DNA of 64,000 bases from Myxococcales bacterium (lineage in GTDB: Bacteria; Myxococcota_A; UBA9160; SZUA-336): contig JABSQV010000130.1 in the NCBI GenBank assembly GCA_013215565.1, positions 8,880-72,879 on the forward strand, read 5' to 3'. Positions 11,694-52,042 of the stretch are shown piece after piece (position 1 is the first letter of the stretch; every line of letters starts with the position of its first letter). Below the pieces are notes generated by a model. It was not told the origin of the DNA. It saw only the letters and a list, made by a program, of their open reading frames with translations, and did not search any database. Made by a program: the position numbers and the translations under genes.

Positions 11694-11757
11694 GATCTGC
11701 TCTCTGTTGGTAGGTCCATCCTACTTGGCAGATCACAGATTGGATACCGGCGAACCT
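11694..11757 (-). repeat. start-associated repeat, type A
   Basis: CTCTCTGTTGGTAGGTCCATCCTAC core then 18 bp then GGATACCGGCGAACC. Confidence 0.8.
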
Positions 11758-12358
11758 AGCTTTCCTTCGGGGCGTCCACGGGCTTCGGCTTCGGGGCGGG
11801 CTTCGGCTTCGGGCGCTTGGTCTTGGGCTTCGCTGGTGCCGGCTCGGCGGCGGCTGGCGCGGTCTTCGGCTTCGCGGCGGCCTGCGCCTGCGGTTGGGGA
11901 GCGAGGGCGACTGGGCGGCGCGGCACGCGCTCGGCTCGGCGCGGCTGGAAGGGGGCCATCAACTCCTTCGGCGTTTCGATGATCGCGCCGGGGTGAACGT
12001 CGAGGGCGGTCGCCCCCGATCCCTGGACGAGATGGTACACGGTGAAGGTGCCGTCGAACTTGGCGAGCGCCTTGGTCAGCTTTCCCTTGGGGGTGGGTTG
12101 CGAAGTCGTGATCACCAGTACCGCCTGGTCGACGACTCGGGAGACCTGACGGGCGAGGAATGCTTCATCCCCGCCATAGACGACCGTGACCCCAGTCCCG
12201 AGCAGCCGCTCACAGTCCTTGGACGAGGACAGGTCGACCACGCGCGCTCGGCCCCACCTCTTCTTGCCGTCGGCGTCGACGGCGAAGATCACGCCGCATC
12301 GGAGCAGCTCATCGCGTCGGGGGTGGGTCAGCGAGTCGATGAAGCCAAGACGTGGCAT
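11756..12358 (-). CDS. hypothetical protein with C-terminal Pro/Ala/Lys-rich histone-like tail
   Basis: ATG at 12358 with GGAGG SD; 200 aa; C-terminus PQAQAAAKPKTAPAAAEPAPAKPKTKRPKPKPAPKPKP resembles actinobacterial HupB/H1-like tails. Confidence 0.5.
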   Translation of the reverse strand: MPRLGFIDSLTHPRRDELLRCGVIFAVDADGKKRWGRARVVDLSSSKDCERLLGTGVTVVYGGDEAFLARQVSRVVDQAVLVITTSQPTPKGKLTKALAKFDGTFTVYHLVQGSGATALDVHPGAIIETPKELMAPFQPRRAERVPRRPVALAPQPQAQAAAKPKTAPAAAEPAPAKPKTKRPKPKPAPKPKPVDAPKES

Positions 12359-12388
12359 GGAGACCTCCGAGATCGCCAGGGTAACACG

Positions 12389-12739
12389 TCAGCCGCAGCT
12401 CCCGCCGAACCCGCAAATGGTGCATTGCTTGCAGGCGCCCATCTGTGCCATCTGGCCGCCGCACCCGAGATCTGGGCAGATGTCGACGATATCCGAGAGC
12501 TGCAACATCCCCAGCGCCGACACGCCCAGATCGAGCTTCGGCAGCTCGATCACCTCGGGCTCTACTGCGTGAGGCACGCGACCCAGATCACCATCGAGCC
12601 AGCTGTCCAGCTCGCGGGGCCAATTCTCGGCCTCGCCGTCTGGGGCCGTCCAGTCGTGGTCCCCGTCCTCATGCGGATCGCGGTGACATCGGCGCCCACC
12701 ATAGGTGCTGTCACATTGCGGGCGTGGGTGGGCGGTCAT
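12389..12739 (-). CDS. Cys-rich hypothetical protein
   Basis: 116-aa ORF, C-terminal CPDLGCGGQMAQMGACKQCTICGFGGSCG. Confidence 0.4.
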   Translation of the reverse strand: MTAHPRPQCDSTYGGRRCHRDPHEDGDHDWTAPDGEAENWPRELDSWLDGDLGRVPHAVEPEVIELPKLDLGVSALGMLQLSDIVDICPDLGCGGQMAQMGACKQCTICGFGGSCG

Positions 12740-12778
12740 GCTGGGCGGCTCCTGTCGGCGGGTATCGGGTTCGCGGGT

Positions 12779-13135
12779 CTACCCGATGCTCTCGGCCTCG
12801 AGGATCGCATCGACCAACTCCTCGTCGCCCATCTTGCTCCGACCCTTGATCTTCAGGGTCCGTGCGAGCTGGTTCCTGCTGCCCGACTCCATCGCCAGCA
12901 GCTCATCGCGGCGGGACGGCTCAGCGGTCTTCTTGGGCTCAGTCTTCTTGGGCTCGGGCTTGACGGCCTCGACCTCGACGAACCCGTGCAGCCGCTTGAG
13001 GATCGCAACGGTCGCGCGATGGTTGACGGCGACGCGGACCTTGCCGCCATCCACGGCGATCAGCTCGACGTTCTCGGACGCGGTCCGAATGATCTTCCTG
13101 TCTCTTGCGCGCGCTTGGCGCTCCATCACGAACAT
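12779..13135 (-). CDS. hypothetical protein with C-terminal Rho_N/SAP-like motif
   Basis: C-terminus MESGSRNQLARTLKIKGRSKMGDEELVDAILEA matches Rho termination factor N-terminal-like helix-hairpin pattern. Confidence 0.5.
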   Translation of the reverse strand: MFVMERQARARDRKIIRTASENVELIAVDGGKVRVAVNHRATVAILKRLHGFVEVEAVKPEPKKTEPKKTAEPSRRDELLAMESGSRNQLARTLKIKGRSKMGDEELVDAILEAESIG

Positions 13136-13143
13136 GGGATCTC

Positions 13144-14208: not shown

Positions 14209-14292
14209 TGGTTGCGGTGGCGGGACTCGAACCCGCGGCCTCCAGAATATGAACCTGGCGAGCTACCAACTGCTCCACACGCGCCATCGCAG
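14209..14292 (-). tRNA. tRNA-like element, anticodon loop TTCATAT (CAT, Met-like); 5' acceptor strand does not pair
   Basis: RC reads ...TGGAGCAGTTGGTAGCTCGCCAGGTTCATATTCTGGAGGCCGCGGGTTCGAGTCCCGCCACCGCAACCA: good D arm, anticodon arm, T arm GCGGG-TTCGAGT-CCCGC and CCA, but no complement of 3' acceptor CACCGCA at the 5' side. Confidence 0.45.
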
Positions 14293-14569: not shown

Positions 14570-15547
14570 CTAGGCAGCGATCCCGACGAGGATGGCGGCA
14601 CCCAGGGTGTTGGCGAGGGTGAGCGCGCCGTCCCAGAAGATGTCGAACTCGTCGAACTGGCTCGAGGACTTCGCCAGCGGCATCACGGTGAGCGGGGTCA
14701 ACTCGGCGATGTAGCAGTAGCGGGTGTTGACCACGATGATCGCGGTCGTCACGGATCCGCTGTAGGCGGTGACCTTGGTCCCGTTGAAGGTCAGCACATC
14801 GGGCATGCCCGTCGTGGTGATTAGGGGGATCCCATCGTAGGTCCGGACGCGGAAGCCGGCCGCGATCTCGACCATGTCGTTGAACTGCTGCTGAGCCTGG
14901 AGCTGCGCGTTCAGGAGTCGCCGACCCTTGCGGCTGGCGAGGATGACGAGATCGGATCGGTTGCCCGAGCCCTTCACCGCGTCGATGGTCTCGTCCAGCT
15001 TGTCGAGGGTGAGCGCGTCACCGGTCACCGTCGTGGTCTGCAGGATGATCTGCGAGGCGGTGGCCTGGGTGAGCGTGATCAGCCCATCGAACTGGTCGGC
15101 GTCGATCGCGATGTCGCCCGTGACCAGGCCGTCCTCGAAGGTCTCGGAGAAGTCGCCGGTCCGCCCGACGATCTCACCGGCGAGCACGTCGCCGTAGGAG
15201 CGCCCGGTGGCCTGCAGCTTGCGAGTGACCTTGCCGCGAACGATCAGGGTCTTGCACGGGAGCGAGACCTGCACATACGTGCCGGTGCCCTCGGTGGGCT
15301 CCGTGGTGTCGTCGATCCACTCGGCCGAGGAGCCGGGGGTGCGCCGGTTGATGTACTCGGCGTTGCCCGACATCGGCTTGCGGGGCAAGACGGCGGCCGT
15401 TCCCAGTTCCCGATGATGGATCTGCTGGACGGTGCGGTTGATGTTCGTCTGGAGCAGGACGGTGCCAGCACCAGCGACGTTGAGGGCTCGTTCGAAGCGT
15501 TGACGGCGCGCCGGATCGAAACCTGCGAAAGCGGGGGAATTGCTCAT
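14570..15547 (-). CDS. major capsid protein
   Basis: 325-aa protein directly downstream of protease/scaffold ORF and upstream of connector; composition typical of HK97-fold capsid proteins. Confidence 0.65.
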   Translation of the reverse strand: MSNSPAFAGFDPARRQRFERALNVAGAGTVLLQTNINRTVQQIHHRELGTAAVLPRKPMSGNAEYINRRTPGSSAEWIDDTTEPTEGTGTYVQVSLPCKTLIVRGKVTRKLQATGRSYGDVLAGEIVGRTGDFSETFEDGLVTGDIAIDADQFDGLITLTQATASQIILQTTTVTGDALTLDKLDETIDAVKGSGNRSDLVILASRKGRRLLNAQLQAQQQFNDMVEIAAGFRVRTYDGIPLITTTGMPDVLTFNGTKVTAYSGSVTTAIIVVNTRYCYIAELTPLTVMPLAKSSSQFDEFDIFWDGALTLANTLGAAILVGIAA

Positions 15548-17774: not shown

Positions 17775-20417
17775 TCAAACAGGCGGTCGGTTCCCGCCAG
17801 ACAGCGGAACGGCTCGGCCGGCGTTCACCTCGTCCCTGGTCCACATGACCAAGACACATCGGCACCGGCCTCCGCACTCGGTCGCCCCACCGGGCATCGT
17901 GGACAACTGCGACACGGGAACGAACCCTCGGGCGCCCTCGATCGAGCAGGTCGGGCACATGCGGTTGTCCCCGACGTTGACCCACTCGACCATCCACTCG
18001 ACGGCGGCGGGTTGACCGTCTGGGCCAGTCCCGGCCTCGGCCGATCCGTCGAGCAGCCCCTCGGTGAAGCTCTGGTTCGACAACTCGACCAGCTTGCCCG
18101 ACCAGTTGCTGATCCGGTGCTTCTGAGACTCCATCACCGCGCCGATCGAGAGCAAGACCTCCTCGGCGCTCGCACCAGCGGTGAGGCCGACCGGGGCCGG
18201 CTTGACCGCTCGGGCGTTGAGTGCGGATCGGGTCTGACCATCGTCGGTCACAGCTCCGACCACGGCGGCAAGACTCGCTCGCAGATCGGCGATCAGCCCG
18301 CCGGGGTCGCAGAGGAAGCGCATGGCGCGATCCCCGTAGGCGGCCGACCGGGCATCGATGTCCTCGAGGACGGGCAGGCCGGTGAAGTTCGCGGCAGCAT
18401 CGCGACCGATCCGACCCACATCGCGGTAGACCCCGCTGGTCGACAATGCCCAGTCGGTCTCCAGCTTGTCGAGCGCGCGACCGATCGCCTGGGTCAGACC
18501 CAAGGCGTCGTCGGAGTCGAAGTTGGTGGTGTACCGAGAGGAGACCGCGGTGAGCACATCTCGGGTGGCTTGGTCGTACAGAGGTTCGACCCTCCGCGCA
18601 TATTGGGCGGTCTGCTCCCACAGCTCGGAAAGCTGCAGCGTCCGAACGTTGGCGAACATCCCGCGCGGTTGCCACTCGCTCGGGAGGTCATCGATCAGCG
18701 CCCGCTGCTGGATCTCAGCGCGCACCTCGCCGGGGGCTTCATCGTCCTCGGGGTTCTCGGTCCCCGCCCCTGGGTCATCGACCGACCCTCCGCCTCCGCC
18801 ACCGCCGCCGCCGCCGCCGCTGGGAGGGGTGTCGTCATCGTCATCAGGATCTGGATCCTGGCCGAGGACGTTGGCGATGATACGCTCGGCGCTGACGAGG
18901 AGCTGGAGAGGGACTGGACCCTGAGGTGTGTCGACGGTCGCGATGTCGCCGCCACCGAGCGGGGGCTGGCCGATCTCCTTCCTCGCCTCGTTGCGAGTGA
19001 GTAGACCCTCCTGAACCAAGGCGACCAGCGTGTCGGCTACTTCCTTACGCTCGGCTGGGGTCAGCTTCTCGTCGCGGTCGAACCTGAAGCGGACGGGCGC
19101 CCCAGAGTTGCCCTGAGCGTCGAGCACCAGCGGCAAGATCCTGGCGTTGATCTTGCCCTCGATCAGTTCGAGGATCGGGTTGATGAGGTGAGAGGATCCG
19201 ACCTCAAGCTGCACCTGGCCGACGGCGCGCGGGATGTCCTCGCTCGCTCCCATCTCGACGGGCATGACCCCGAACACTCGCCAGATCGTGCGGCGAACGT
19301 CCTTGACCACGTTGATGAAATCCACGTCCTTGTTCGAGCGGCGCAGCTCGACCCACTTGGCGCCCGTGGCGGTCGGGTCAGCCGATGTGACCACGCGGAT
19401 CTTGTGGTCCTTGCCCCGCATCTTCTGCAGGTCGGCCTTGGCCGCCTCGGCCGCCATCCCGGCCAGGCCGGTGAGAACGAGAATGCCGGGAGGGATCTCG
19501 TCGGCGTCGAAGGTGAGCATGGTGTGCTCAGCCTGTCGCAGCATCGTGGTAATCTCGTTGAGGATCGTTTCGATGAGCGGCACGCCCTCGACGCCGCTGG
19601 TGTTGGCGAACATCCGCAGGTAGACGATCTGCCTGGGCGAGAAGAGGGGGTTGATGGTTGGGGTGCCATCGTGCTGAGCGATCTGCCCGAGTTGCTCCGG
19701 GGACAGCACCTGGGGAACGATCGCCCCGGTCCCGAGAAGATCTTGCTGGTAGCCCATCACCCGGCCGTGGGTGTCGACGAGAGGTCGGATGTCCCCACCT
19801 CGCAGCGCGACCAGCTCCTCAAGTTTGTCGCCGACCCCGGTTGTGATCCGACCTGTCTCCTCGTCGGTCTCCATCGAGGTGTCAAACACGTTCTCGATAA
19901 CCCCGGCATCGAAGACCAGCAGGTCGGTGATCCACTTGGTCATCACCTCTTGCCAGGTCTCACCGTCCTCGTTGGGCGCCTGCAGGAACCGCTCGGCTTG
20001 CTGGGCGGCATCGAGCGCGGACTCATACCCCGCCTCGGCCGGGTCCAACTCGGGCTTAATCATGTTGCCCCAGGTCGCGACCCGACGGACGATCGCGTCG
20101 ATGGCTGCTCGGACATCGGGTGAGCGTTGGTAGACCAGCCAGAGCTGCTCGGTCGTCAGGACGCGGTTGACCCGACCCTGCTGGTAGCTGGTGTCGAGAC
20201 CAAAGAGGGCAGACCCCGCCGACCGACCAACTCGGTCTCGGGTGTCGAGCATCGGTCGGCTGTGACCGGCTGCGCCCTGCATCCAGAGACCACCGGGCTT
20301 CTCAGCCTTCTTTCGTCGGAGTCGAACCACGCCGGTGGTGTTCGTTGCGAGGACGCGGACGGTCATGTTGTGAGCCCTCCCTGCCTGCGAAGGTAGCACG
20401 GCAGCGGGAGTGCTCAC
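17775..20417 (-). CDS. portal protein with C-terminal MuF-like head morphogenesis domain (880 aa)
   Basis: Size and position downstream of terminase region; internal D5/G11 linker (PDPDDDDDTPPSGGGGGGGGGGG); C-terminal CPTC...C cluster typical of MuF/SPP1 gp7-like domains. Confidence 0.7.
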   Translation of the reverse strand: MSTPAAVLPSQAGRAHNMTVRVLATNTTGVVRLRRKKAEKPGGLWMQGAAGHSRPMLDTRDRVGRSAGSALFGLDTSYQQGRVNRVLTTEQLWLVYQRSPDVRAAIDAIVRRVATWGNMIKPELDPAEAGYESALDAAQQAERFLQAPNEDGETWQEVMTKWITDLLVFDAGVIENVFDTSMETDEETGRITTGVGDKLEELVALRGGDIRPLVDTHGRVMGYQQDLLGTGAIVPQVLSPEQLGQIAQHDGTPTINPLFSPRQIVYLRMFANTSGVEGVPLIETILNEITTMLRQAEHTMLTFDADEIPPGILVLTGLAGMAAEAAKADLQKMRGKDHKIRVVTSADPTATGAKWVELRRSNKDVDFINVVKDVRRTIWRVFGVMPVEMGASEDIPRAVGQVQLEVGSSHLINPILELIEGKINARILPLVLDAQGNSGAPVRFRFDRDEKLTPAERKEVADTLVALVQEGLLTRNEARKEIGQPPLGGGDIATVDTPQGPVPLQLLVSAERIIANVLGQDPDPDDDDDTPPSGGGGGGGGGGGSVDDPGAGTENPEDDEAPGEVRAEIQQRALIDDLPSEWQPRGMFANVRTLQLSELWEQTAQYARRVEPLYDQATRDVLTAVSSRYTTNFDSDDALGLTQAIGRALDKLETDWALSTSGVYRDVGRIGRDAAANFTGLPVLEDIDARSAAYGDRAMRFLCDPGGLIADLRASLAAVVGAVTDDGQTRSALNARAVKPAPVGLTAGASAEEVLLSIGAVMESQKHRISNWSGKLVELSNQSFTEGLLDGSAEAGTGPDGQPAAVEWMVEWVNVGDNRMCPTCSIEGARGFVPVSQLSTMPGGATECGGRCRCVLVMWTRDEVNAGRAVPLSGGNRPPV

Positions 20418-20441: not shown

Positions 20442-21101
20442 CTAGGCGGCTTCGACGAACAGGACTTTCGAGCCCTTGATGCTGCGGAGGGTCGCGGTGA
20501 CGCCGAGGATTTCGCAAGCGTGGCGGGCCGCGCCGCGCGTGGTGTAGAAACGACGGTACTTGCGGGCGGTGGTCGGGAACTCAAGGGCGGCCATGGTCTC
20601 TTCGGTCGCCTGGCCATCGAAATCGCGGATGATGGCCTTCAGCCTGTCTTCCCAGGAGAGGTTCTTTATCGCGTTCTTGCGCCAGCTGCGGACGCGGGTC
20701 TCGACGGTGACGATGGCGCGATCGATGATGGCGATGCCGATGACGAAATCGTTGGCGAGCGTTCCGACGCGCTGGGCGAAGTCACTGTCGGCGCCGTAGA
20801 CGGCGAGGCGGGTGACGAGGACGGCGCGCTGGGCGTCGAGGCTCTTGAGGGACGCGACGATGCTGTGGTCGCCGTGCTCCATCGGCATGTTGTTCGTGCC
20901 GGCGCAAGTCGTCTGGGTGGTGAAGTCGTTGTGGCGGTTGAGCGTTCCGTTGCTGACCTTGATGTCATCGCGGAGGCAGGCGCCGCAGGTCGCGCGGACG
21001 GGGTTCGAGGCGCTGACGCGGCGACCGGAGCGCGCTTCCCAGCGAGCGTTGAGGTCGTTGTCGTGGCGGAGGGCGCTGGGGCGGCGGGCGATGCGGGTCA
21101 T
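20442..21101 (-). CDS. hypothetical protein (possible HNH-like nuclease)
   Basis: ATG at 21101 abutting conserved repeat; CGAC...C and EHGDH motifs. Confidence 0.45.
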   Translation of the reverse strand: MTRIARRPSALRHDNDLNARWEARSGRRVSASNPVRATCGACLRDDIKVSNGTLNRHNDFTTQTTCAGTNNMPMEHGDHSIVASLKSLDAQRAVLVTRLAVYGADSDFAQRVGTLANDFVIGIAIIDRAIVTVETRVRSWRKNAIKNLSWEDRLKAIIRDFDGQATEETMAALEFPTTARKYRRFYTTRGAARHACEILGVTATLRSIKGSKVLFVEAA

Positions 21102-21175
21102 GACTTGCTCTCTGTTGGTAGGTCCAATTTACAGGAGTACCCGCTGGTTGTGAACCACTTTCGAGATTAATCGCC
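21102..21175 (-). repeat. start-associated repeat, type A variant (GGTAGGTCCAATTTAC)
   Basis: core abutting ATG 21101. Confidence 0.7.
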
Positions 21176-22022: not shown

Positions 22023-22396
22023 CAGACCAGCTCGGGACTGTAGACATCGCGCCAGTCGCCGCGAGCGATGGACTCGACGAGCTTGGTGATCGCGAGTCGG
22101 TATCGGATCACGTCCTCGAGGACATCGCCCGACCAATCGACCTCGATGTCGAACGCCTCGATGCCGTCGACGTTGCCGTCCTTGTCGATGACCTCGATGG
22201 CGACGACGATGGCGCGGACGCCCTCCCATCCGGGGGTCGCATAGAAGTGGATGATCTGATCGGGGCGGCCGATCCGGGTCACCGCGATGCTACCGACCAG
22301 CGGGTGCTCGATGTCGATCCGCCAGTCGTTGACGGCCTTGGTCATCGCGACGAGCGGGCGGATGGTGTCGTTCAGGTAGCTGGCGGTCACGGTCAT
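22022..22396 (-). CDS. hypothetical protein
   Basis: ATG at 22396 (MTVTASYL) abutting variant B repeat. Confidence 0.5.
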   Translation of the reverse strand: MTVTASYLNDTIRPLVAMTKAVNDWRIDIEHPLVGSIAVTRIGRPDQIIHFYATPGWEGVRAIVVAIEVIDKDGNVDGIEAFDIEVDWSGDVLEDVIRYRLAITKLVESIARGDWRDVYSPELV

Positions 22397-22445
22397 GATG
22401 TTCTCTCTGTTGGTGTCTCCAAGGTACTGGGTGTACCCACTCACT
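22397..22445 (-). repeat. start-associated repeat, type B with GGTAC-N5-GTACCC
   Basis: CTCTCTGTTGGTGTCTCCAAGGTACTGGGTGTACCCAC. Confidence 0.7.
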
Positions 22446-22499
22446 GTAAACCACGATCACCCAACTTCTCGCCCATCAGCTCGACTGATACCAAGCAGC

Positions 22500-23980: not shown

Positions 23981-24205
23981 TCAGAAGGGCGGGATCACGA
24001 TCCTCACGCAAGAAGTGCGGCGGCGATCGTCATAGGCGATGCGCATGGCGCGCGACTCAGCGAGGAGGGCGCGCGACTCAGCGAGCAGCTCGGCGTAGGT
24101 CGGGGCGGGCTCGACATCGAACTCGGAGAGCCAGTGACCGTCAGTGGTCAGCGTGGTCCCTTTGGAGTCGTCAGCGGAGGGGGCGGTCGGTGTGCGTGTC
24201 GGCAT
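23981..24205 (-). CDS. hypothetical protein
   Basis: ATG at 24205 abutting conserved repeat; contains tandem LLAESRA duplication. Confidence 0.45.
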   Translation of the reverse strand: MPTRTPTAPSADDSKGTTLTTDGHWLSEFDVEPAPTYAELLAESRALLAESRAMRIAYDDRRRTSCVRIVIPPF

Positions 24206-24268
24206 GATGTTCTCTCTGTTGGTAGGTCCATCCTACGCGGCAGAGAGTCGATTGGACACCGGCAGACC
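24206..24268 (-). repeat. start-associated repeat, type A
   Basis: core plus GGACACCGGCAGACC box at 18-bp spacing. Confidence 0.8.
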
Positions 24269-25106: not shown

Positions 25107-25107
25107 C

Positions 25108-26999: not shown

Positions 27000-27212
27000 C
27001 CGTGCTGGGTGATACCATCCAGTGCCCATCGTGAAGGCGAAGGCATCCCCGAAGCGGCGTTCCTGCCCGACCCCCTCTCTGTTGGTACTAAGCGGTGTGG
27101 GAGGGCAGGGACGTCCAACCTCTGGTCGAGGGGTCGGCGCGCGGAACGGGTCATCGCGAACAGCTACACCAGCGATGTGCGAGGAGCCCAGTAAGTCGCG
27201 CCGGCCCTGAGA

Positions 27213-30612: not shown

Positions 30613-30690
30613 CAGTCGTTGTTGATGACCTTGACAGAGTCAGCGTAGGGCGTGACGATCTCAAAGCTGGTCGATGTTCGTCGTGGTCAT

Positions 30691-30753
30691 TGTCTGCTCT
30701 CTGTTGGTAGGTCCAATATAGAGGATCGACATCTCATTGGATACCGGCAATCC
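30691..30753 (-). repeat. start-associated repeat, type A, orphan copy before 9-codon ORF
   Basis: core GGTAGGTCCAATATAG plus GGATACCGGCAATCC. Confidence 0.75.
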
Positions 30754-30756
30754 AGG

Positions 30757-30990
30757 TTATTCCCCGATCATTTCCGACCGCCGAGAAATCTGTGCGTCCA
30801 TCGCGTCGAGTACCTCGTCGAGATCCAGGCGGCCCCATTGGTCCACCAGCATGGCCGAGACGCCGTCATACCACCCCTCGCGGGTGTATTCGGCGATGTC
30901 GTCGTCGGTCATGGCGGCAATGATGTGGGCGGCGGCGGCCTCATCGTCGTCGGTCATGGCGGTAAGGGCTTCGGTAGTGGTGGCGGTCAT
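30757..30990 (-). CDS. small acidic hypothetical protein
   Basis: ATG at 30990 abutting conserved repeat; MTATTTEALTAMTDDDEAAAAH. Confidence 0.45.
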   Translation of the reverse strand: MTATTTEALTAMTDDDEAAAAHIIAAMTDDDIAEYTREGWYDGVSAMLVDQWGRLDLDEVLDAMDAQISRRSEMIGE

Positions 30991-31053
30991 GTTGTCCTCT
31001 CTGTTGGTAGGTCCATCCTACTTGGAGATCCGCGACTTGGATACCGGCCAACT
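30991..31053 (-). repeat. start-associated repeat, type A
   Basis: core plus GGATACCGGCCAACTC. Confidence 0.8.
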
Positions 31054-34318: not shown

Positions 34319-34674
34319 TAGAGGCAGTCTCCGCCGAGGATGAAGGACTCGATCGTGGCGCTGCCGTACCCGTCGCCCTCAAAGGTCATGATGGCGCGGC
34401 CTTGACGCCGACGGAACTCGCGCTTGACGACCTTGAGGTCGGCCTGGACATCGGCGAACGTGTAGGTCTCGGTCTTCTCATCGTAGGAGGTCACGACGGT
34501 CGTGGTGACGCCCTCGGCGACACCCGAATCACGCGCGGCAGCAACGGCCGCGTTGTTGTCTTCGGACACGTAGTTGATGGCGGCGAGCCAGGCGGTCTCG
34601 ACCGACTTGAACACGCCGAGGTTCCCGTCTTCGGAGCCGCGAAGTATATAGACTGCTTTGTTGCGCTTCGACAT
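34318..34674 (-). CDS. hypothetical protein
   Basis: ATG at 34674 (MSKRNKAVYILRG) abutting conserved repeat; repeat-embedded ATG at ~34701 is in frame (MDLPTERHT-MSKR). Confidence 0.5.
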   Translation of the reverse strand: MSKRNKAVYILRGSEDGNLGVFKSVETAWLAAINYVSEDNNAAVAAARDSGVAEGVTTTVVTSYDEKTETYTFADVQADLKVVKREFRRRQGRAIMTFEGDGYGSATIESFILGGDCL

Positions 34675-34738
34675 TGTGTGCCTCTCTGTTGGTAGGTCCA
34701 TCCTATCGGAGTACCCATCTCTTGTATACCGGCAAACC
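34675..34738 (-). repeat. start-associated repeat, type A
   Basis: core plus GTATACCGGCAAACC. Confidence 0.8.
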
Positions 34739-34903: not shown

Positions 34904-35342
34904 GAACCCCAAACCCTCACCTGGCCGCTGAACCCTCGGGTCTCGAACAGGTCGCGCCTGGACCGCAGAGTGCGAGTCAGCGACTCGCGGCGGGCGGACT
35001 CGATGTCCAACTCGACCATGATCTCTTTGACGGTCATCGAACCGACACGGCCCAGCAACTCAACGACGCGGGCGCGGAGGGTGCCCGACTTGGCGCGCTT
35101 CTTCGGCTCGGGCGTGCCCTTGCCGAACTGCTTGCCGGCCCCGGTCAGAACCCAACCTGGTAGATGAAGTGACCGTCAATGAGCTTGGCTTCGGAGAGCT
35201 GCTCGATGACCGACAGGCTGTGCTTGAAGACGATTCCGTCCGTCGGGTGGTACAGCTCGGCGCTGCCCGTCTGGCCGCCGTCGGGGAGGCCCAGCCATCT
35301 TGCAGGAGGGCGAGGGCTGTGCGGGCTGCTTTCGTGAGGGTC
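34904..35342 (-). CDS. winged-helix DNA-binding protein, interrupted by two apparent frameshifts
   Basis: ATG at ~35342 abutting repeat gives MTLTKAARTALALLQDGW. High-GC3 coding then continues in -1 frame (GGQTGSAELYHPTDGIVFKHSLSVIEQLSEAKLIDGHFIYQVGF). It continues again in the third frame (GKGTPEPKKRAKSGTLRARVVELLGRVGSMTVKEIMVELDIESARRESLTRTLRSRRDLFE) ending ~34904. Shifts occur at C/G runs. Confidence 0.3.
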
Positions 35343-35405
35343 ATTGTCTGCTCTCTGTTGGTAGGTCCATCCTACTGGTCTTCCAGTGGAATGGATACCG
35401 GCAAA
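35343..35405 (-). repeat. start-associated repeat, type A
   Basis: core plus GGATACCGGCAAACC. Confidence 0.8.
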
Positions 35406-39285: not shown

Positions 39286-39307
39286 GTTCTGCTTCCTCTC
39301 TATGAAG

Positions 39308-42973: not shown

Positions 42974-43082
42974 CGGGTTGTCCCTGCTCGCTCCAATTCT
43001 ATCGCGATCTGGGCGAGCCTGCGCTGAGCCGCGCGATGGGTGCGCGGTTTCGCGCACCGGGTGCGAGATCATCGCGCACCCG

Positions 43083-44036: not shown

Positions 44037-44341
44037 CACCAGTCTCCGATCTCGGACTTGGCCTCGGCCACCAACGCGGCCACCTGCTCCTCGAGCCACC
44101 CGGCCATGTGGGTGCGCAGCTCCTCGGGGATGATCCAGTCGGGGGTCTTGGTCTGCTTCAGCTTCAGCCCGATCTGGTTCTCGTCCCTGAGTCGAACGGC
44201 GACCTGGGCGAACTGGGCCGCGCGGGTGAGCAGCTCTCGCCGTCGCCGGGAGTCGTTGTCGCGCCGGTAGAGTTGATCGCTCACCAGATTGATCAGCTCC
44301 TCGACATCGGTGGGCGGCAGTGCGGGTTTGGCTTTGGGCAT
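44036..44341 (-). CDS. hypothetical protein
   Basis: ATG at 44341 (MPKAKPALPP) with GAGAGG SD; upstream part of ORF 44036..44542 is translation of the inverted repeat. Confidence 0.45.
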   Translation of the reverse strand: MPKAKPALPPTDVEELINLVSDQLYRRDNDSRRRRELLTRAAQFAQVAVRLRDENQIGLKLKQTKTPDWIIPEELRTHMAGWLEEQVAALVAEAKSEIGDW

Positions 44342-44384
44342 GTTGGTCCTCTCAGAATGGGATGCCCTGTTCGAGGGCGCTCCA

Positions 44385-44587
44385 ATGAGCCATCTGGTGA
44401 CACCGACAGACCGATACCAATAGGCAGAGGTGAGGTTGCGGGCCTTGGTCTTGGCTTCGCGCTCGATGCGCTCGGTGCGCTCCCGCTCCTCACGGAGTCT
44501 CCGCTGTCTCTCGGTCAGGGGTTTTCGGCGTCCCATGCTCACCTCTGCCTATTGGTATCGGTCTGTCGGTGTCACCAGATGGCTCAT
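44385..44587. repeat. perfect 50-bp inverted repeat, arms 44385-44434 and 44538-44587, 103-bp spacer
   Basis: ATGAGCCATCTGGTGACACCGACAGACCGATACCAATAGGCAGAGGTGAG and its exact reverse complement, seen directly. Confidence 0.85.
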
Positions 44588-45514: not shown

Positions 45515-45847
45515 TCAGAAGGGGGCGGTCATATCTTCTTGGGTGATCTGGAAGGTCGCGTCACCAGCAGAGGCGCGAGAGCTGCGCTTGGTGAGGATGA
45601 TCTCGCCCGCGTCGGCGTTGATCCGCAGCTCGAGCCCCAGCTCGGAGAGCAGGATGAACACAGCCGGCCAGGGCGGAACGCGCTTCTCGGCACCCGTGGC
45701 GAAGGAGCTGATCGTCTGTTTGCGGAATCCCAGGTGCTCTCCGAGCTTGACGGAGCTCCGACCGGGCTCGGCCTCGATCCATCTGCGGCGCAGCTCGGCG
45801 AAGATCCAGTTGCGGGGTCGACCTTGCTGGGTGGGCTTCGCGGTCAT
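45515..45847 (-). CDS. XRE-family HTH DNA-binding protein
   Basis: LGEHLGFRKQTISSFATG Cro/CI-type HTH; ATGA overlap with sigma gene. Confidence 0.5.
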   Translation of the reverse strand: MTAKPTQQGRPRNWIFAELRRRWIEAEPGRSSVKLGEHLGFRKQTISSFATGAEKRVPPWPAVFILLSELGLELRINADAGEIILTKRSSRASAGDATFQITQEDMTAPF

Positions 45848-46401
45848 GCTGCTCCTTGCTCTCTTGTGCGGTCCCGCAGCTTGCGGAGTCGCCAGTTGCG
45901 AGCGGCTCGGGTGATCCCGAGCTTCTCGTTGATGTCCTCGGTCGACCAGTCCTCGAGGACGGTCTGCATCGCGACCGTCTGGGTCTCGTTGGCGATGGTG
46001 TACAGCTCGGCGACCCGCTGGTTCGCATCGTGGTGGCGCTCGAACATGGTGACCAGATTGCACATCGGGTCCATGGACGTGACCTTGGTGCGCTGCCGCT
46101 GCTCGATCCCCACGTTCCGCGAGCGCACCCGCAACAGGCGCAGCCGGGTCAGGCTCGCCCGCGACTTGATCCAGGACCTGCAGCCCTGGGACGAGCAGTA
46201 GGGGCACGGCCTGGCCTTGTCGGAGCGCGTCGGGTCGAACAGATCGAACGCGGTGACGAGATCGAGGCAGAGATCCTGCTGGAAGTCGTTGGGGTCGATC
46301 CCGCGAATGCGGAACATGTTCGCGCGGCTGTACCGCTCGATGGCTTGGGCGTGCTGCAGGATGAAAACCCATGCCGGGTTCTCGGTTGTTGGGCGGGTCA
46401 T
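45844..46401 (-). CDS. sigma-70 family minimal sigma factor (regions 2 and 4)
   Basis: DLCLDLVTAFDLFDP region-2-like and STEDINEKLGITRAARNWRLRKLRD region-4 HTH; ATG at 46401 followed by repeat and GGGTAC-N5-GTACCC palindrome. Confidence 0.5.
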   Translation of the reverse strand: MTRPTTENPAWVFILQHAQAIERYSRANMFRIRGIDPNDFQQDLCLDLVTAFDLFDPTRSDKARPCPYCSSQGCRSWIKSRASLTRLRLLRVRSRNVGIEQRQRTKVTSMDPMCNLVTMFERHHDANQRVAELYTIANETQTVAMQTVLEDWSTEDINEKLGITRAARNWRLRKLRDRTREQGAA

Positions 46402-46850
46402 TAGTCGCTGTCTCTCTCTGATGGTTGGGCGGATGGTAACAGATTGTGGGTACGAGGTGTACCCGGATCCCGCGACCTTTCCGGCATCGAAGACCAGAGC
46501 GGGAAGGGTGGGGCATAGCCGCGAGTTTCGATCCAGAGATGGATCATCCCGCCGCGTGCTGCCGCCGAGGGTGTGGGGCCTCCGTCGAGCAGTCGTCGGA
46601 GGCAGTGACTCACGATCGGATCGTTGCAGTGCTCGACGTAGAAGTCCCTGATCTCTTGTCGGATCCTGGGCCACCGTCGCGCCCACCGTCGCATGGTGTC
46701 GATGTCCCATCGGGTCAGACCGCCGTCGCCCTGCAGGGTGTCGATCAGCGCCTCGGCCAGCTTCTCCATCGGCTCCCATCGAGCGATCTCGGTGAGCGGG
46801 GCGATCTCCAGGGAGAGCATGATCAAGCTGGCTGGATCTCCCTTCACCAC
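46401..46850 (-). CDS. hypothetical protein; 3' end uncertain (reads through repeat)
   Basis: N-terminal two thirds protein-like (MVKGDPASLIMLSLEIAPLTEIARWEPMEKLAEALIDTLQGDGG); GC3 collapses before the repeat, true stop or frameshift probably near 46500. Confidence 0.3.
   Translation of the reverse strand: MVKGDPASLIMLSLEIAPLTEIARWEPMEKLAEALIDTLQGDGGLTRWDIDTMRRWARRWPRIRQEIRDFYVEHCNDPIVSHCLRRLLDGGPTPSAAARGGMIHLWIETRGYAPPFPLWSSMPERSRDPGTPRTHNLLPSAQPSERDSD
46402..46470 (-). repeat. start-associated repeat variant plus GGGTACGAGGTGTACCC palindrome
   Basis: CTCTCTCTGATGGTTGGG then palindrome ~46448-46464. Confidence 0.65.
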
Positions 46851-47428: not shown

Positions 47429-48958
47429 CTACCTCCTCGGCACGACATTCGCCGCGCCTCGCTCTTTGTCATCGTGATTCTTGAGGTCGACGACCTCATC
47501 GCAGATCTCGCGCATCGCACCTGTGATCGAGCCCCTGGCGACCGTGAGCCCGAAGACCCGCATTCCGGTCTCCTCGCGGCGCCTGGCCAGCTCGGCCATC
47601 ACCGAGCTGCTCGCCGAGGCGTGCCCGTCGGTCACGAACACGATGTCGGAGCGGTCGTCGGCGGCCTGACCGTTCAGGGCGTACTTGAGGGGCGGGTTGA
47701 AATCGGTTCCGCCGCCAACGCGAGCGGTCACCAACTCCAGCGCGATGTCGGCGGGGCCACCGAGTGCGGTCTCGCCTCGGGTTCGACCCGTGTAGGTGTC
47801 GACATCGACGCGATAGGCGCGCCTCTTCTCGTCGAGGCGATGCACGCTGCAGACCCCACCGTTGAACCCGATGAAGGTCACGGCCCGCTTCTCCTTGATC
47901 GCGGTCTGCATGCAGGAGAGGGCGATGGCGCAAGCCAGCTGATGAGGTTGACCCGACATCGATCCCGAGCGGTCGAGCAGGACGGTCATCGGACCACGAC
48001 CCAGCACCTCGGTCCCGTCGAGCGCGTACTGGAGCAACGACCGCTCGACGACCTTCGCCAGAGTGAGGAGGCGCAGCTTGGGGTGCCGCAGTCCAACGAG
48101 CTGGGACGGGAGTACTCGGGACAGATCTGCGCCGCGCTCGATGCTGACGACCTCAGTGCGGGCGTCGGTCGTGCGGACCCGCTTCTTGGATGCTGCGATC
48201 CGCTGGATGCGTCCCGCCCTGCGGATCACGTCCCGGAGTCGCTTGTTCGACATCAGGTGCTCGGCGAGCTGCATGCGACCCGTGTCCTCCTTCTGGGAGT
48301 AGCCGGGAGGTGCAACTTCAAGACCGGGGGACAGACCGGAGAGTCCGGACTTGACCTCGACGATCTCCTCGTTCGCCTTCTCGGCGGCATCGCGCATCGC
48401 CGCCCGCATCATATCGACGGCTGTGGGCAGATCGCTCTCCTCACCGTTCTCGTCGAGGACGGGATCGTTGAGCTTGTCCCAGTCGCCATCGAAATCCTCG
48501 TTCTGGTCCTCGTCCTTCATGATGTCGGCGAGCTGCTCGCTGGCCGCCCTCATCATCGAAGCAGAGGCGATGGCCGCGAGATCGGGATCGCCGACAACGC
48601 GGGAGGCCAGCTCGGTGAACTCGGGGAGCTGCGAGAGCGCCTCATGCAGCGTCGGAACCCAGCGCGGGCACTTCGGCTCATCGAGCTTGGCGGGCTCGTT
48701 GTACAGTCGCGAGAAGACCTCGGTGCCGAGAGCGTCGGCCGTCGAGTGTGCGAACGACCGAACGCGGGCGACGGCGTTCTTGTTGTCCTCCTGCTCGACC
48801 AGGCCCTCCTCGATGACCTTGGAGGTCTGCAGGATCGCGTTGCCTACGGCCTTGCTGCGGTCACGTCGGATCTCAAACAGCAGGCGCTGCCACTCGCTGG
48901 TGTCGTAGGCGAGCTTGGCGTGGGTGCTGGTCTCGGCGGGCTTGCGTTTCGCGGACAT
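47429..48958 (-). CDS. von Willebrand factor A (VWA) domain protein
   Basis: ATG MSAKRKPAE abutting repeat; C-terminal VLLDRSGSMSG (DxSxS MIDAS) ... VFVTDGH. Confidence 0.6.
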   Translation of the reverse strand: MSAKRKPAETSTHAKLAYDTSEWQRLLFEIRRDRSKAVGNAILQTSKVIEEGLVEQEDNKNAVARVRSFAHSTADALGTEVFSRLYNEPAKLDEPKCPRWVPTLHEALSQLPEFTELASRVVGDPDLAAIASASMMRAASEQLADIMKDEDQNEDFDGDWDKLNDPVLDENGEESDLPTAVDMMRAAMRDAAEKANEEIVEVKSGLSGLSPGLEVAPPGYSQKEDTGRMQLAEHLMSNKRLRDVIRRAGRIQRIAASKKRVRTTDARTEVVSIERGADLSRVLPSQLVGLRHPKLRLLTLAKVVERSLLQYALDGTEVLGRGPMTVLLDRSGSMSGQPHQLACAIALSCMQTAIKEKRAVTFIGFNGGVCSVHRLDEKRRAYRVDVDTYTGRTRGETALGGPADIALELVTARVGGGTDFNPPLKYALNGQAADDRSDIVFVTDGHASASSSVMAELARRREETGMRVFGLTVARGSITGAMREICDEVVDLKNHDDKERGAANVVPRR

Positions 48959-49020
48959 CGGACTCTCTCTGTTGGTAGGTCCATGGTACACAATGACTGG
49001 GTACACCACAACCCCGACGC
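48959..49020 (-). repeat. start-associated repeat variant (GGTAGGTCCATGGTAC ... GGGTACACC)
   Basis: core abutting ATG of VWA gene. Confidence 0.7.
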
Positions 49021-49049: not shown

Positions 49050-50195
49050 CTAGAAGCGGAGGCGGGACTTCAATTCGAGGGCGATCCGCTCGCGCATGGC
49101 GTCGATCTTCTGCGAGCACTCGAGGACACGGCTCGTCTGGTTGAGCAGCCCGATCTGGTCGCTGTATGCCTCAAGCATATCGGCCGCGCCGGTCGCGGCG
49201 AGCAGGAACGCCTGGCCCTTGGCGGCGAAGTCAACCTTTCGGTATTCGGCCGTCGCGAGATCGAGCGCCTTGCGCGCCTTGCTGATGTCGGGATCGATCA
49301 ACTTGGTGATCGCCGCGTCAACACTCGCGCGCTGGTCGGGCTCGTCCCAGAGGCAGTCGGAGAGGATGTCGAGATCTTCACGGGTGGCGACGGCGCGACC
49401 GTTGAGGAGCGCGTGACCCTTGATCAGTTTGATGGCCTTGCACCAGCGTCGATCGCTGACCACGATCTCATGGTCCATGGCGAGTTTCTCGCGCAGGTCG
49501 AGCACCGCGTCGATGACGGCATCGACGTTGACGGCTGCGGTCTGGGTGCGCAGGTCGTTGACTTGCTCGATGGTCAGCGAGGCCGTGATCTTCGGCTCAT
49601 CGGACGAGGACAGCAGACCGCGCAGCTTGTCGCGGTCGCTGATGTACCCGACCCACCGACGCAGGACGAACCGGTCGAACAGCGCGCCGAGGCTCTCGTC
49701 CTCGGGGAGCTCGTTCGACGCACCGACCATCATCTCCAACGGGATCGAGATCCGCTGGCCGCCGTTGTCGAACTGGCGCTCGTTGATGGCGGTCAACAGA
49801 CCGTTGAGGATCGCGCTGTTGGCTTTGAAGATCTCGTCGGCGAAGGCGACGGTCGCCTCGGGCAGATACCCAGCGGTGACGCGGCGGTACTGATCCTGCT
49901 CAAGTCCCTGCAGGCTGATCGGTCCGAAGACCTCCTCGGGGACGGTGAACTTGGTGAACAGCAACGACCAGGGCGTCCCGCCGAGGGCGGCCGTCAGGGC
50001 GTTGGTCAGCGCGGACTTCGCCGTGCCGGGAGGGCCGAGGAGCAGGACGTGCTCGCCCGCGAGCAAGGCGACCAGCAGGCAGGTCACCTCGCGGCTGCGC
50101 TCGATGAAGGCGCGGTCGAGGTCGACGCGCAGGTCTTGGAGCGCGGCGAGGGTGGTGGGGGCGGTCTGGGCGGTCAGGGCGGCTGGGGCGGTCAT
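49050..50195 (-). CDS. MoxR-family AAA+ ATPase
   Basis: HVLLLGPPGTAKS Walker A, ATVAFADEIFKANSAILNGLLTAINERQF Walker B/sensor typical of MoxR; ATG abutting variant B repeat. Confidence 0.7.
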   Translation of the reverse strand: MTAPAALTAQTAPTTLAALQDLRVDLDRAFIERSREVTCLLVALLAGEHVLLLGPPGTAKSALTNALTAALGGTPWSLLFTKFTVPEEVFGPISLQGLEQDQYRRVTAGYLPEATVAFADEIFKANSAILNGLLTAINERQFDNGGQRISIPLEMMVGASNELPEDESLGALFDRFVLRRWVGYISDRDKLRGLLSSSDEPKITASLTIEQVNDLRTQTAAVNVDAVIDAVLDLREKLAMDHEIVVSDRRWCKAIKLIKGHALLNGRAVATREDLDILSDCLWDEPDQRASVDAAITKLIDPDISKARKALDLATAEYRKVDFAAKGQAFLLAATGAADMLEAYSDQIGLLNQTSRVLECSQKIDAMRERIALELKSRLRF

Positions 50196-50280
50196 TTCGA
50201 TGTCCTCTCTGTTGGTGTGACTCCAAGGTAGAGGAGTCAAGCTCGAATGGATACCCATTAATCGGGTACTCCACCAAGAA
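50196..50280 (-). repeat. start-associated repeat, type B
   Basis: CTCTCTGTTGGTGTGACTCCAAGGTAG ... GGATACCC ... GGGTACTCC. Confidence 0.65.
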
Positions 50281-50360
50281 AGTTGGGCGGGTGGCTCACC
50301 TCGCCATCGCCCCCGGAGTGCTCTCCGGCGACGCGGCGATCTCGGTCTCGGGTCTCTGTA

Positions 50361-51575
50361 CTACGCGGCGGCTTCGGGCGCGGCCTCGACCGGGGCGGGG
50401 GCGGGCGCGTCCAGCTTGGTGAAGACGACGGTGGTCCCGCCCTTCTTTTTGGACAGGCGACCGCGCAGGTTCACCTCGGTCAGGGTCGCGCCGGCGTGGC
50501 GGGTCCAGAACGTGCGGTACTTGCCAGCCCACTCGGGAAACCCGGAGTCGGCGAGCTGCTCGACGGTCAGCTCCATGCCGTGCTTGTCGATGGCGGCTTT
50601 GATCTGGGTCTTCAGCTTCTCGCTTACACCCCGCGCCTTGCGCTTGCCATCGCCCTCGTCCTTCGCGAGTCCGAGGAGCGCGTTCGCCTGCTCGACGGCA
50701 TCGTCGATCTCGGTCTCCAGCTCGCCGAGTCCCAGGTGCAGGCTCTCGGAGTACAACTCGGCATAGGACTTGAGGGTGCGCAGCTCACCGAGCGCCTTCG
50801 CCAGGGAGTCGGCGCGCGGGCGTTGCTCTTTGGACTTCTTGGTCCAGTCGGCGAGGCGCTCGCGGATCCCGGCGAGGCTCTCGCTCGGGACCTTCTTGCC
50901 GTCGGCGACGTTGCCCATCAGGAAGTTCTTGGCCGCGCCGCCGATGCTGGTGCGGCTGGCCTCGGTGTCGGAAACGTGGGTGATGTGCAACGCGCTGTCC
51001 CCGATCTTGCTGACGATGCGGGCGAGCTTCTCGACATCGTCCTGGTGCTGCTTCGGGACGTAGTAGATCCCGCCCGAGTGCTGACGGACCGAGAATGCGC
51101 CGAACGCCTTGAGGGGCGCCTGGATGAGCACGGGGCGGATGAAGTCGTGGTCGAGGTACGTCCGGTCGCTGTCGGCCTGGGCGATGAAGCGGGTCGCCTC
51201 TTCGGTCTTGCCGACGGTCGTCCACTTGTCCATGGCCTTGTCGAACACGACGGTATCGACCTGCTCCCACCTGACCTCTTTGTCGTTGACGCGCTTGTGG
51301 GTCAGGATGCCGACCATCAGCGAGTCGGCGTCCTCGAACACGACCTCGGTGCGGTAGCGCGCCGCGTTGCCGCGTCCCTGCTTCCAGCTTCGGGCCGTGT
51401 CGCGGATCTCGGACACGCTGTTGAGATCGGGGACCACGCTCGGGTTCTCGCCTTCGGACTTCAGGATCTTTCGCAGTGCGGCGGGGGTCGTCTTGGTGTT
51501 GAAAAGATCCCACCAGACGAGGGCGCCGAGGCCGAGGGCCAGGTTGTCCATCATCTGCGTTTTGTCGGTCGTCAT
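50361..51575 (-). CDS. hypothetical protein (404 aa), first gene of leftward early operon
   Basis: ATG MTTDKTQMM abutting repeat; C-terminal Lys/Gly-rich tail. Confidence 0.5.
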   Translation of the reverse strand: MTTDKTQMMDNLALGLGALVWWDLFNTKTTPAALRKILKSEGENPSVVPDLNSVSEIRDTARSWKQGRGNAARYRTEVVFEDADSLMVGILTHKRVNDKEVRWEQVDTVVFDKAMDKWTTVGKTEEATRFIAQADSDRTYLDHDFIRPVLIQAPLKAFGAFSVRQHSGGIYYVPKQHQDDVEKLARIVSKIGDSALHITHVSDTEASRTSIGGAAKNFLMGNVADGKKVPSESLAGIRERLADWTKKSKEQRPRADSLAKALGELRTLKSYAELYSESLHLGLGELETEIDDAVEQANALLGLAKDEGDGKRKARGVSEKLKTQIKAAIDKHGMELTVEQLADSGFPEWAGKYRTFWTRHAGATLTEVNLRGRLSKKKGGTTVVFTKLDAPAPAPVEAAPEAAA

Positions 51576-51600
51576 CGTGTGCCTCTCTGTTGTTGTTTGG
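51576..51600 (-). repeat. start-associated repeat, truncated variant
   Basis: CCTCTCTGTTGTTGTTTGG abutting ATG 51575. Confidence 0.5.
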
Positions 51601-51825
51601 CATGAGGAAGGTCGCATCTGCTGCGTACACTTGCAACCAGGATCGGGAGGTTATTTCTAGGTTTCGTGGAAACCCCGTTGGACTGATGGCTTCTCACGAT
51701 CAGGACGCGAGGGTCGGTCGTATCCTCCTGCCGGAGGGCGAGTTTCGATGCCGCGCCTCTGAGGTTTCGGGTTGTGCTCGTACCCACTCCATGTGTACCT
51801 TGGCGTCACCAACAGAGAGGTCACC
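51576..51825. promoter_or_regulatory. divergent early control region with GGTTTCGTGGAAACC palindrome
   Basis: 250-bp spacer between leftward (51575) and rightward (51826) starts; perfect 6-3-6 palindrome at ~51661-51675; plus-orientation copy of start repeat at 51790-51825. Confidence 0.45.
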
Positions 51826-51967
51826 ATGGCAACGTCAGCCCACTACACGCTCGCCAGCATCCCGATGGACAAGCAGGTCAAGCAGCTCCTCCCCGCCTGC
51901 CCCGCCGCTCGACGGGATCGCGAGAGCGCGGATCTACTTGCGCGCCAAGGCGGCGGCGGAGGGCTGA
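51826..51967 (+). CDS. small hypothetical protein, apparent +1 frameshift in C-run
   Basis: MATSAHYTLASIPMDKQVKQLLPACPAA then high-GC3 continues in another frame to TGA at 51967. Confidence 0.3.
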
Positions 51968-52003
51968 CCGAGAAAACCAAGATTGGTGGTTGTGGTTCAC
52001 TTC

Positions 52004-52042
52004 TCCATTCTGTACCTTGGACCTACCAACAGAGAGGACAGC
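52004..52042 (+). repeat. start-associated repeat in plus orientation
   Basis: GTACCTTGGACCTACCAACAGAGAGGACAGC before ATG 52043. Confidence 0.7.

Follow-up and report, generated by a model that had tools for sequence, protein, structure and literature searches.

Putative promoters of two classes fused to a fixed 5' leader form a repeated start-associated cassette in an uncultured tailed phage

The window analysed here, a stretch of 64,000 nucleotides (nt) deposited under Myxococcales bacterium (assembly GCA_013215565.1, contig JABSQV010000130.1, positions 8,880 to 72,879 of the forward strand), has a G+C content of 64.5%, carries tailed-phage genes and is part of an uncultured tailed phage of a metagenomic lineage. 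Its genes, called with a home-made codon model, fall into a leftward arm on the minus strand, running from about 51.6 kb down to position 1, and a rightward replication arm on the plus strand from about 51.8 kb that encodes a PD-(D/E)XK nuclease, an AAA_24 protein and a primase-helicase. The leftward arm contains the genes for the terminase (27213-28946), portal (17775-20417), SU10-like capsid protein (14570-15547) and tape measure (572-4759), together with those for DUF6744, MoxR-like and VWA proteins and many small open reading frames (ORFs). Within it lie four plus-strand islands at 11018-11605, 22500-24035, 24636-26999 (MazG-like, HslV-like) and 29007-30580 (ParB-like, Mom-like). Our subject is a family of conserved cassettes that occupy the intergenic gaps of both arms, including the divergent switch at 51.6-52.0 kb, and that stand directly before the start codons of genes encoding unrelated proteins.

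The initial annotation had recognised these repeats by eye, and the family withstands counting. The 12-mer ACCAACAGAGAG, which leads all repeat families of the window, occurs 15 times there with at most one mismatch against 0.39 expected, and the 18-mer GGACCTACCAACAGAGAG has nine exact sites against 0.08 expected (11700, 21108, 24212, 30697, 30997, 34682, 35351 and 48965 on the minus strand, and 52019 on the plus strand). A profile of the core run with nhmmer finds 12 copies at E values of 4e-5 or lower; a weak profile match at 39283-39321 overlaps a tRNA-like gene and was rejected as a family member. Thirteen copies lie on the minus strand and two on the plus strand, the latter on the plus arm, each in the sense of its neighbouring gene. 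An ATG follows 14 of the 15 copies, mostly at a distance of 6 nt (ten copies) and otherwise at 7 nt (two copies), 9 nt or 12 nt (one copy each), and ATG is the start codon at every cassette start. The proposed tally of at least 14 genes is reached only by counting the degenerate copies at 46414, ahead of a sigma-like gene, and at 51583, ahead of the DUF6744 gene.

Numbered from the A of ACCAAC as +1, the 12 core copies share the order TAnnnT, GG, 4 nt, ACCAACAGAGAG, 6 nt (7 or 9 nt in two copies) and ATG. The leader from +1 to +12 has a pairwise identity of 1.00 over all copies, and the segment from -13 to -1 one of 0.73 overall and 88% within the copies that we call type A, in which alone positions -42 to -29 are also kept (86% identity). 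The spacer from -28 to -14 (0.31) and the six nt preceding the ATG (0.39) are near random. The hexamer at -12 to -7 takes five forms in the 12 copies (TAGGAT five times, TACCTT four times, and TACCAT, TAAATT and TATATT once each); its first T, second A and sixth T are invariant and GG follows in 12 of 12, all variation being confined to the three middle positions. From the end of the hexamer to the first A of the leader there are 6 nt in 11 copies and 8 nt in the copy at 50205, and position -1 always holds a pyrimidine, T or C. The fixed spacing reported earlier describes ten of the 12 core copies, in which the leader lies 6 nt from the ATG; one copy each has 7 nt and 9 nt. Sharing extends over about 24 nt in all core copies and about 56 nt within type A, and is not limited to the 8-10 nt closest to the Shine-Dalgarno (SD) sequence.

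Upstream of this core the family divides in two. Six copies (11700, 24212, 30697, 30997, 34682 and 35351) are of type A and carry TTGCCGGTATCC; their TTGCCG lies 24 nt from the hexamer, which is too distant for a -35 role, and a 14-nt block, TTGCCGGTATCCAA, is kept between about -42 and -29. The five type B copies, before 21101, 22396, 48958, 51826 and 52043, all possess a -35-like hexamer 17-18 nt upstream of the core hexamer (TTGTGG, TTGTGC, TTCACA or TTTACA, that is TTGnnn or TTnACA), and their spacer often holds a GTACC box. A single unit of about 60 nt, (T/G)TTGCCGGTATCC with an 18-nt gap, had been proposed for the whole family; it fits the six type A copies and fails for the five others and for the hybrid at 50205, where a type A-like GGTATCCA element is joined to a type B hexamer. 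The copy at 30697 likewise pairs a type A upstream half with TATATT, and such mixing of halves and hexamers looks modular, as in promoter elements.

The type A cassettes all lie on the minus strand. The first, at 11691..11753, reads TCGCCGGTATCCAA, N15, G-TAGGAT-GGACCT, ACCAACAGAGAG, 6 nt and ATG 11693, and the ORF that it heads, coding-like for only about 20-28 codons, runs antisense into the plus ORF 11018-11605. The cassette at 24203..24265 precedes a 74-aa gene (24205-23981) followed by a terminator-like hairpin at 23965-23946, and that at 30988..31050 a 77-aa gene (30990-30757). At 34672..34735 the cassette has a 7-nt spacer and precedes a 118-aa gene (34674-34318), and from it about ten small genes run down to 31073. 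The cassette at 30688..30750, with its TATATT hexamer, stands before ATG 30690 and a 9-codon ORF ending in CTT TGA G, beyond which lies a strong GC hairpin (30562-30590), as the initial annotation had it: a copy with only a short ORF and a terminator behind it. The cassette assigned to a start at 35342 is present at 35342..35404, its start codon being the ATG at 35344-35342, and its small ORF shifts frame at a CCCC run near 35283. The two minus-strand ORFs at 30661-30690 and about 35283 thus change frame, each at a short homopolymer, and neither has another start codon; CTT TGA G resembles the RF2 +1 shift site and the +1 frame is open for 17 well-biased codons, while reading on in the -1 frame past the CCCC run gives a 66-aa product. 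Since the long ORFs of the window are intact, random assembly error is no obvious cause of these frame changes.

Three type B cassettes lie on the minus strand, at 21099..21161 (TTCACA, 17 nt, TAAATT, GGACCT, leader, 6 nt, ATG 21101; a 219-aa gene directly upstream of the portal gene), at 22394..22456 (TTTACA, 18 nt, TACCTT, GGAGAC, leader, 6 nt, ATG 22396), which stands at the head of the structural-gene block and points away from the divergent plus gene at 22500, and at 48956..49018 (TTGTGG, 17 nt, TACCAT, GGACCT, leader, 6 nt, ATG 48958; a VWA-domain protein). The two plus-strand copies, correctly placed before 51826 and 52043 from the outset, are both of type B and lie at 51766..51828 (TTGTGC, 18 nt, TACCTT, GGCGTC, leader, 6 nt, ATG 51826) and 51983..52045 (TTGTGG, 17 nt, TACCTT, GGACCT, leader, 6 nt, ATG 52043; a 62-aa gene). 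These two cassettes and their small ORFs (51826-52231, plus strand) are overlapped by the 3' 350 nt of a 564-aa minus-strand ORF (51878-53572) with a weak DnaG-type zinc-finger match. Judged by coding signal, the plus ORFs are the likelier genes below 52230, and the minus ORF is the likelier one beyond that point.

The remaining copies, all on the minus strand, depart from these patterns. In the hybrid (50193..50258), GGGTATCCAT, 18 nt, TACCTT, GGAGTCAC, the leader and 9 nt lead to ATG 50195 of the MoxR-like ATPase gene. The degenerate copy at 46399..46467 (ACCATCAGAGAG at 46414, 12 nt, ATG 46401) precedes the gene of a sigma factor of the extracytoplasmic function (ECF) type. The other degenerate copy, at 51573..51636 (TTGCAA, 17 nt, GACCTT ... 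AACAACAGAGAG at 51583, 7 nt, ATG 51575 of the DUF6744 gene), reads as the putative leftward promoter of the divergent region. Finally, a lone leader 12-mer at 27075..27086 (profile E value 0.017) has neither TAnnnT nor ATG, lies in the gap between convergent genes that follows the terminase gene and is probably a relic or an RNA-level copy.

We consider that the family most probably consists of promoters fused to a fixed 5' leader carrying the ribosome-binding site (RBS), in two classes, and give this reading a probability of roughly 0.6. The cassettes would most likely serve the uniform switching-on and translation of about 14 unrelated genes. In each unit TAnnnT followed by GG would be the -10 hexamer, and transcription would probably start 7 nt downstream of it, at the A of ACCAACAGAGAG, so that every such mRNA would receive an identical, short, unstructured leader of about 18 nt as its complete 5' untranslated region (UTR), in which AGAGAG(G), 6 nt ahead of the ATG, would act as the SD sequence. 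Type B would probably be read by the host RNA polymerase unaided, matching as it does the ordinary promoters of related phages, whereas the type A block TTGCCGGTATCCAA at -42 to -29 would most likely be the site of a phage-encoded activator or alternative sigma.

Several observations argue for the promoter reading. Within the hexamer only the functional positions (T1, A2 and T6) are fixed, which is the pattern of a sigma-dependent promoter, and T-12, A-11 and T-7, expected of a sigma-70-type -10 element with about 7 nt to a pyrimidine-preceded purine, are present in 12 of 12 copies. The pyrimidine/A junction at -1/+1 is the usual context of a start site, TTGnnn or TTnACA lies at an appropriate 17-18 nt in type B, and copies occupy the 51.6-52.0 kb switch, a place in which promoters are required. 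Weighing against it, a strict scan for sigma-70 promoters (TTGACA/TATAAT) passes a single copy, 21101, and fails most others; type A has no acceptable -35, so its activity would need an additional factor; AGAGAG would pair only moderately with a canonical anti-SD sequence (4-6 bp); the 18-nt block identical in nine copies exceeds the strict needs of a -10-to-SD segment; the leader at 27075 is an exact copy lacking hexamer and ATG; and several cassettes (11693, 30690, 35344 and 51826) stand before tiny or frame-broken ORFs. A DNA- or RNA-binding factor may act at the 18-nt block as well; candidate phage proteins of the helix-turn-helix type are encoded at 42134-43096 and 45515-45847, and a small ORF near 34930-35110 resembles a winged helix-turn-helix.

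The same tiny or disrupted ORFs, and the near identity of the core between copies, could be taken to mean that a mobile or recombination-prone cassette, or a set of recent duplications, has spread with no regulatory role. We find this hardly credible, given that the blocks are kept and the spacers randomised, whereas recent duplication should have preserved both. Terminal repeats and target duplications are lacking, the orientation is always that of the gene, and a relative with a sigma protein no more than 61% identical still has the 12-mer.

The main rival to the promoter reading places the function in RNA, the cassettes being post-transcriptional elements on polycistronic RNAs that aid ribosome loading or are the target of a regulator or RNase. 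It gains from the fact that the most invariant part of the family is the 12 nt near the start codon, at a fixed distance of 6 nt and with ATG at all starts, from the leader copy without a hexamer at 27075, and from the retention of the leader in the relative just mentioned (L025 below). Moreover, the ATG of 38312-38506 has ACAGAGAG 4 nt upstream, and shorter AGAGAG-type SD sequences occur in front of 38926-39285, 45515-45847 and 58843-59232 with no cassette. It leaves unexplained, however, why T, A and T are fixed in a hexamer whose middle is free, as well as the -35-like hexamer of type B, the -42 to -29 block of type A and the copies at the divergent switch, and we judge it unlikely.

Nor is there a conserved RNA structure on which such an element could draw. 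The leader is predicted to be unpaired in nearly all 12 core copies, and Rfam covariance models match none of the cassettes, their only two matches in the window being tRNA genes at 14213-14284 and 39311-39369 (both minus strand; 53.8 and 34.2 bits), neither of which ARAGORN reported. The GTAGG-ATGGA-CCTAC hairpin proposed in the initial annotation is complete in four copies, has 4 bp in 34682, and is absent from 30697 and from every type B copy; having no compensatory changes, it does not stand as a feature of the family. The internal ATG noted beside it occurs in six of the 12 core copies (five with TAGGATGG, and TACCATGG at 48965) and is missing from the other six. The 9-codon upstream open reading frame (uORF) built on it exists where the spacer is 6 nt and is not family-wide, and we rejected the uORF or in-frame extension (MDLPTE...) as a common feature because half the copies have no ATG and the frame relative to the gene varies. 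With TAGGAT and TACCTT best read as -10 hexamers, both the internal ATG and the hairpin would fall upstream of the likely transcription start. Small stems upstream of type A at 34682, 30997 and 30697, looked at as a possible conserved terminator, proved inconsistent between copies and were discarded.

A related proposal, which we also rate as improbable, is that the leader (12 nt, and 18 nt in most copies) serves as an address tag on about 14 mRNAs, with the island-facing copies firing silencing antisense transcripts. A dedicated phage factor, such as a translational regulator, an RNase or leader-specific ribosome recruitment, could be its reader, and if this were true both promoter classes could be switched together post-transcriptionally. 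The minus-oriented leader copies at 11700, 24212, 27075 and 30697 do face the 3' ends of all four plus-strand islands, an arrangement that hints at antisense transcription or transcriptional interference and that may also be a coincidence, promoters being needed to restart leftward transcription.

The identity of the 18-nt block in nine copies, beyond the needs of RNA polymerase, also bears on the idea that the repeats are operators, at which a phage repressor or regulator would bind GGACCTACCAACAGAGAG and block initiation or elongation genome-wide. The stoperators of cluster A mycobacteriophages are 13-bp asymmetric repressor sites, intergenic and oriented with transcription (PMC3203893), and resemble the window's cassettes as many asymmetric intergenic sites along transcription. 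The cassettes are likewise multi-copy and have a single orientation to transcription, and proteins resembling helix-turn-helix regulators are encoded nearby (42134-43096). On the other hand, stoperators have no fixed register to a -10 hexamer or start codon, an exactness that an operator does not require, and neither a repressor nor an integrase was recognised among the genes of the window. We therefore find this explanation very unlikely as a replacement for the promoter role, with which an operator role could coexist.

For the question of which factor would read type A, the gene behind the degenerate cassette at 46399..46467 is relevant. The initial annotation had called this minus-strand ORF (45844-46401, 185 aa) a sigma factor, and a family profile now places it in the ECF type, making it a candidate reader of one promoter class. 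Taken as a single sequence it has no direct Pfam or PDB match, and an AlphaFold2 model built on three sequences was unusable (predicted local distance difference test score of 42). Among 1.84 billion representative proteins it has 49 homologues, and a profile of 41 of these matches the structures of the ECF factors SigE, RpoE and CnrH over residues 7-178 with E values of 9e-10 to 4e-7; Pfam Sigma70_r2 matches 23 of the 41 scanned homologues and not the window protein itself. By this profile the protein consists of regions 2 and 4 only and has the length (about 180-200 aa) of ECF sigmas. The phage thus encodes an ECF-type sigma, and the promoters that it reads are not deducible from sequence alone.

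It is tempting to assign type A to this sigma as a middle-gene class, leaving type B to the host sigma. GGTATCC would then be the -35 and GTAGGA the -10 element, and GGTATCC-N17-GTAGGA fits ECF spacing; the identity of the sigma holds, in the leftward order its gene, which is preceded by a B-like promoter, comes before every type A copy, and the long, nearly invariant upstream block of type A is like the -35 elements of ECF promoters. Yet types A and B share TAnnnT-GG, a primary-sigma signature (the A-11 and T-7 pockets) that ECF sigmas do not use, nothing links the sigma to any single class, and another repeat family of the window is at least equally ECF-like, so that we regard the assignment as tentative and rather doubtful.

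That second promoter-like family reads CTGACG(G)-N16-GATACC(A/T) and lies 15-25 nt ahead of gene starts, with GATACC at 12761, 21856, 22487, 24562, 24613, 32695, 38284, 39378, 41490, 44554 and 58819 (both strands taken together). GATACC occurs in sense within 36 nt upstream of 9 of the 96 called genes against 0.77 expected, a copy before a tRNA-like gene favours a transcriptional role, and one relative (L029) has the same architecture, TTGACG-N16-GGATACC. The ECF-type sigma is a candidate reader of this GATACC family. One of its promoters, together with the gene start, is duplicated in opposite orientation by a perfect 50-nt inverted repeat (44385-44434 and 44538-44587, arms 103 nt apart) inside the 5' part of gene 44036-44542. 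This may be either a segment capable of inversion or a product of misassembly.

The arrangement proposed for type A has a parallel in phage T4. In T4 middle promoters a MotA box replaces the -35 element and is combined with a sigma-70 -10 hexamer, and type A similarly keeps the -10 and swaps the -35 for an element near -30 to -40. By this analogy a phage factor may redirect the host RNA polymerase to type A, although the element differs in sequence and position from the MotA box and T4 middle promoters share no fixed leader and RBS; no homologue of MotA or AsiA came to light, none having been looked for. The class III promoters of phage T7, conserved from -17 to +6 and read by a single-subunit phage RNA polymerase, are similar in that a contiguous block of about 23-24 nt crosses the start site before many genes; they differ in that TAnnnT and TTGnnn of the window point to a multisubunit, sigma-dependent enzyme. 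A single-subunit RNA polymerase was considered as a reader and dropped, none being found among the large ORFs scanned, which are part of the window's ORFs.

In architecture alone, the closest analogue of the window cassettes is the start-associated sequence (SAS) of cluster K mycobacteriophages combined with its extended form (ESAS), described by Pope et al. in 2011 (PMC3203893) and taken up in the Adephagia study of 2024 (PMC11373665), and the earlier suggestion of a shared cassette or 5' leader on unrelated genes, similar in concept to SAS/ESAS and perhaps recognised by transcription proteins of the phage, agrees with the anatomy. The SAS is asymmetric, is found in front of 13-19 genes that are unrelated and for the most part non-structural, at 3-9 nt from their ATG, includes the SD sequence and is conserved beyond the needs of rRNA pairing (PMC3203893). 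A subset is preceded by an ESAS of about 46-50 bp, now proposed to hold a SigA-like -35/-10 promoter (PMC11373665). The ESAS/SAS units are intergenic, of one orientation and absent from the host, and their function is unproven (PMC3203893, PMC11373665). The window shares with them an asymmetric, single-sense repeat, 6-12 nt before the ATG in 14 of 15 copies, whose 12 invariant nt exceed any SD pairing. In sequence, the five type B copies also carry putative SigA-like hexamers 17-18 bp apart, as proposed for the ESAS, and type A does not. Unlike in cluster K, the start-proximal block is almost never found without the hexamer, at a fixed distance that would give an invariant 5' UTR, there are two alternative upstream halves, and structural genes also are headed by copies. 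The window phage is, furthermore, not a mycobacteriophage, and the sequences are unrelated: the 13-bp SAS consensus GGGATAGGAGCCC, allowing up to two deviations, has one match in the window against 2.2 expected, which carries two mismatches, is intragenic and does not coincide with any cassette. When the cassettes 11700, 35351 and 48965 were inspected for 17-bp inverted repeats of the ESAS type, two had no repeat of at least 8 nt and 11700 had one 8-nt pair. The window cassettes are not members of the cluster K SAS family, though they are the same kind of control element.

Close relatives of the phage are scarce. A metagenome scaffold in ENA (ERZ23488527) carries an identical terminase. Searches of INPHARED with megablast and tblastn gave no close relative, no known phage has a terminase more than 26% identical to that of the window, protein-based scans of IMG/VR returned distant loci only and no close relative, and the nearest terminases, 55-64% identical, are all metagenomic. 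The exact 18-mer has one low-GC chance match in IMG/VR and none in GTDB genomes, and the degenerate pattern TAnnnTGGnnnnACCAACAGAGAG gives 17 single matches in JGI metagenomes, all in unrelated contexts and mostly of low GC; the motif is by these searches lineage-specific.

Five relatives with terminases 59-64% identical (L004, L023, L024, L028 and L029) have, in equivalent gaps, promoters of type B-like architecture (TTGACG, 16-18 nt, TAnnnT or GnTACn), often with GTGTACCC-N7-GGGTAC boxes, from which the ACCAACAGAGAG leader is absent. The sole closer relative compared, one short fragment from a different metagenome sample (L025) with a sigma protein 61% identical, does have the leader: ...GTTACCTGCCCAC ACCAACAGAGAG AAGCCCGCC ATG precedes the orthologous sigma gene, that is the exact 12-mer, 9 nt and ATG. 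Retention of the 12-mer at this degree of divergence of the sigma protein points to selection rather than to recent copying. More distant relatives (L026 and L027; VWA protein 43-44% identical) possess different repeated cassettes of their own, each about 90 nt long, in front of DUF6744, MoxR and VWA genes, at 7077, 8723, 10001 and 12764 in L026 and at 6776, 8690, 10001, 11747 and 13888 in L027. These contain the palindromes GGTAACCG-TCTA-TCGGTTAC or GTTATCCG-N4-CGGATAAC, and L027 additionally has a shared, hairpin-containing leader of its own that ends in GGAGAAcaNcATG.

Two further features of the window deserve mention. The start of the terminase gene looks leaderless, with TTGACT, 17 nt, CACCTT and TGGTGA directly before ATG 28946 (28947-28995, minus strand). 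The primase-helicase (59229-62309, plus strand; Toprim and DnaB_C) contains a LAGLIDADG homing-endonuclease segment at about residues 647-717, which suggests an intein.

For the phage itself, the motif marks the true gene starts, namely 51575 and not 51617, 50195 and not 50258, 48958 and not 49009, 22396 and not 22444, and, in L025, the ATG at 157 and not that at 202. If the promoter reading is right, the window holds about a dozen natural promoters that have the same start region and RBS and differ only upstream, which would make them a near-ideal set for asking which factor, be it a host sigma, the phage ECF sigma or an activator, reads which half. It would also mean that a distant group of phages has independently evolved an architecture of the ESAS/SAS type, whose sequence is unrelated.

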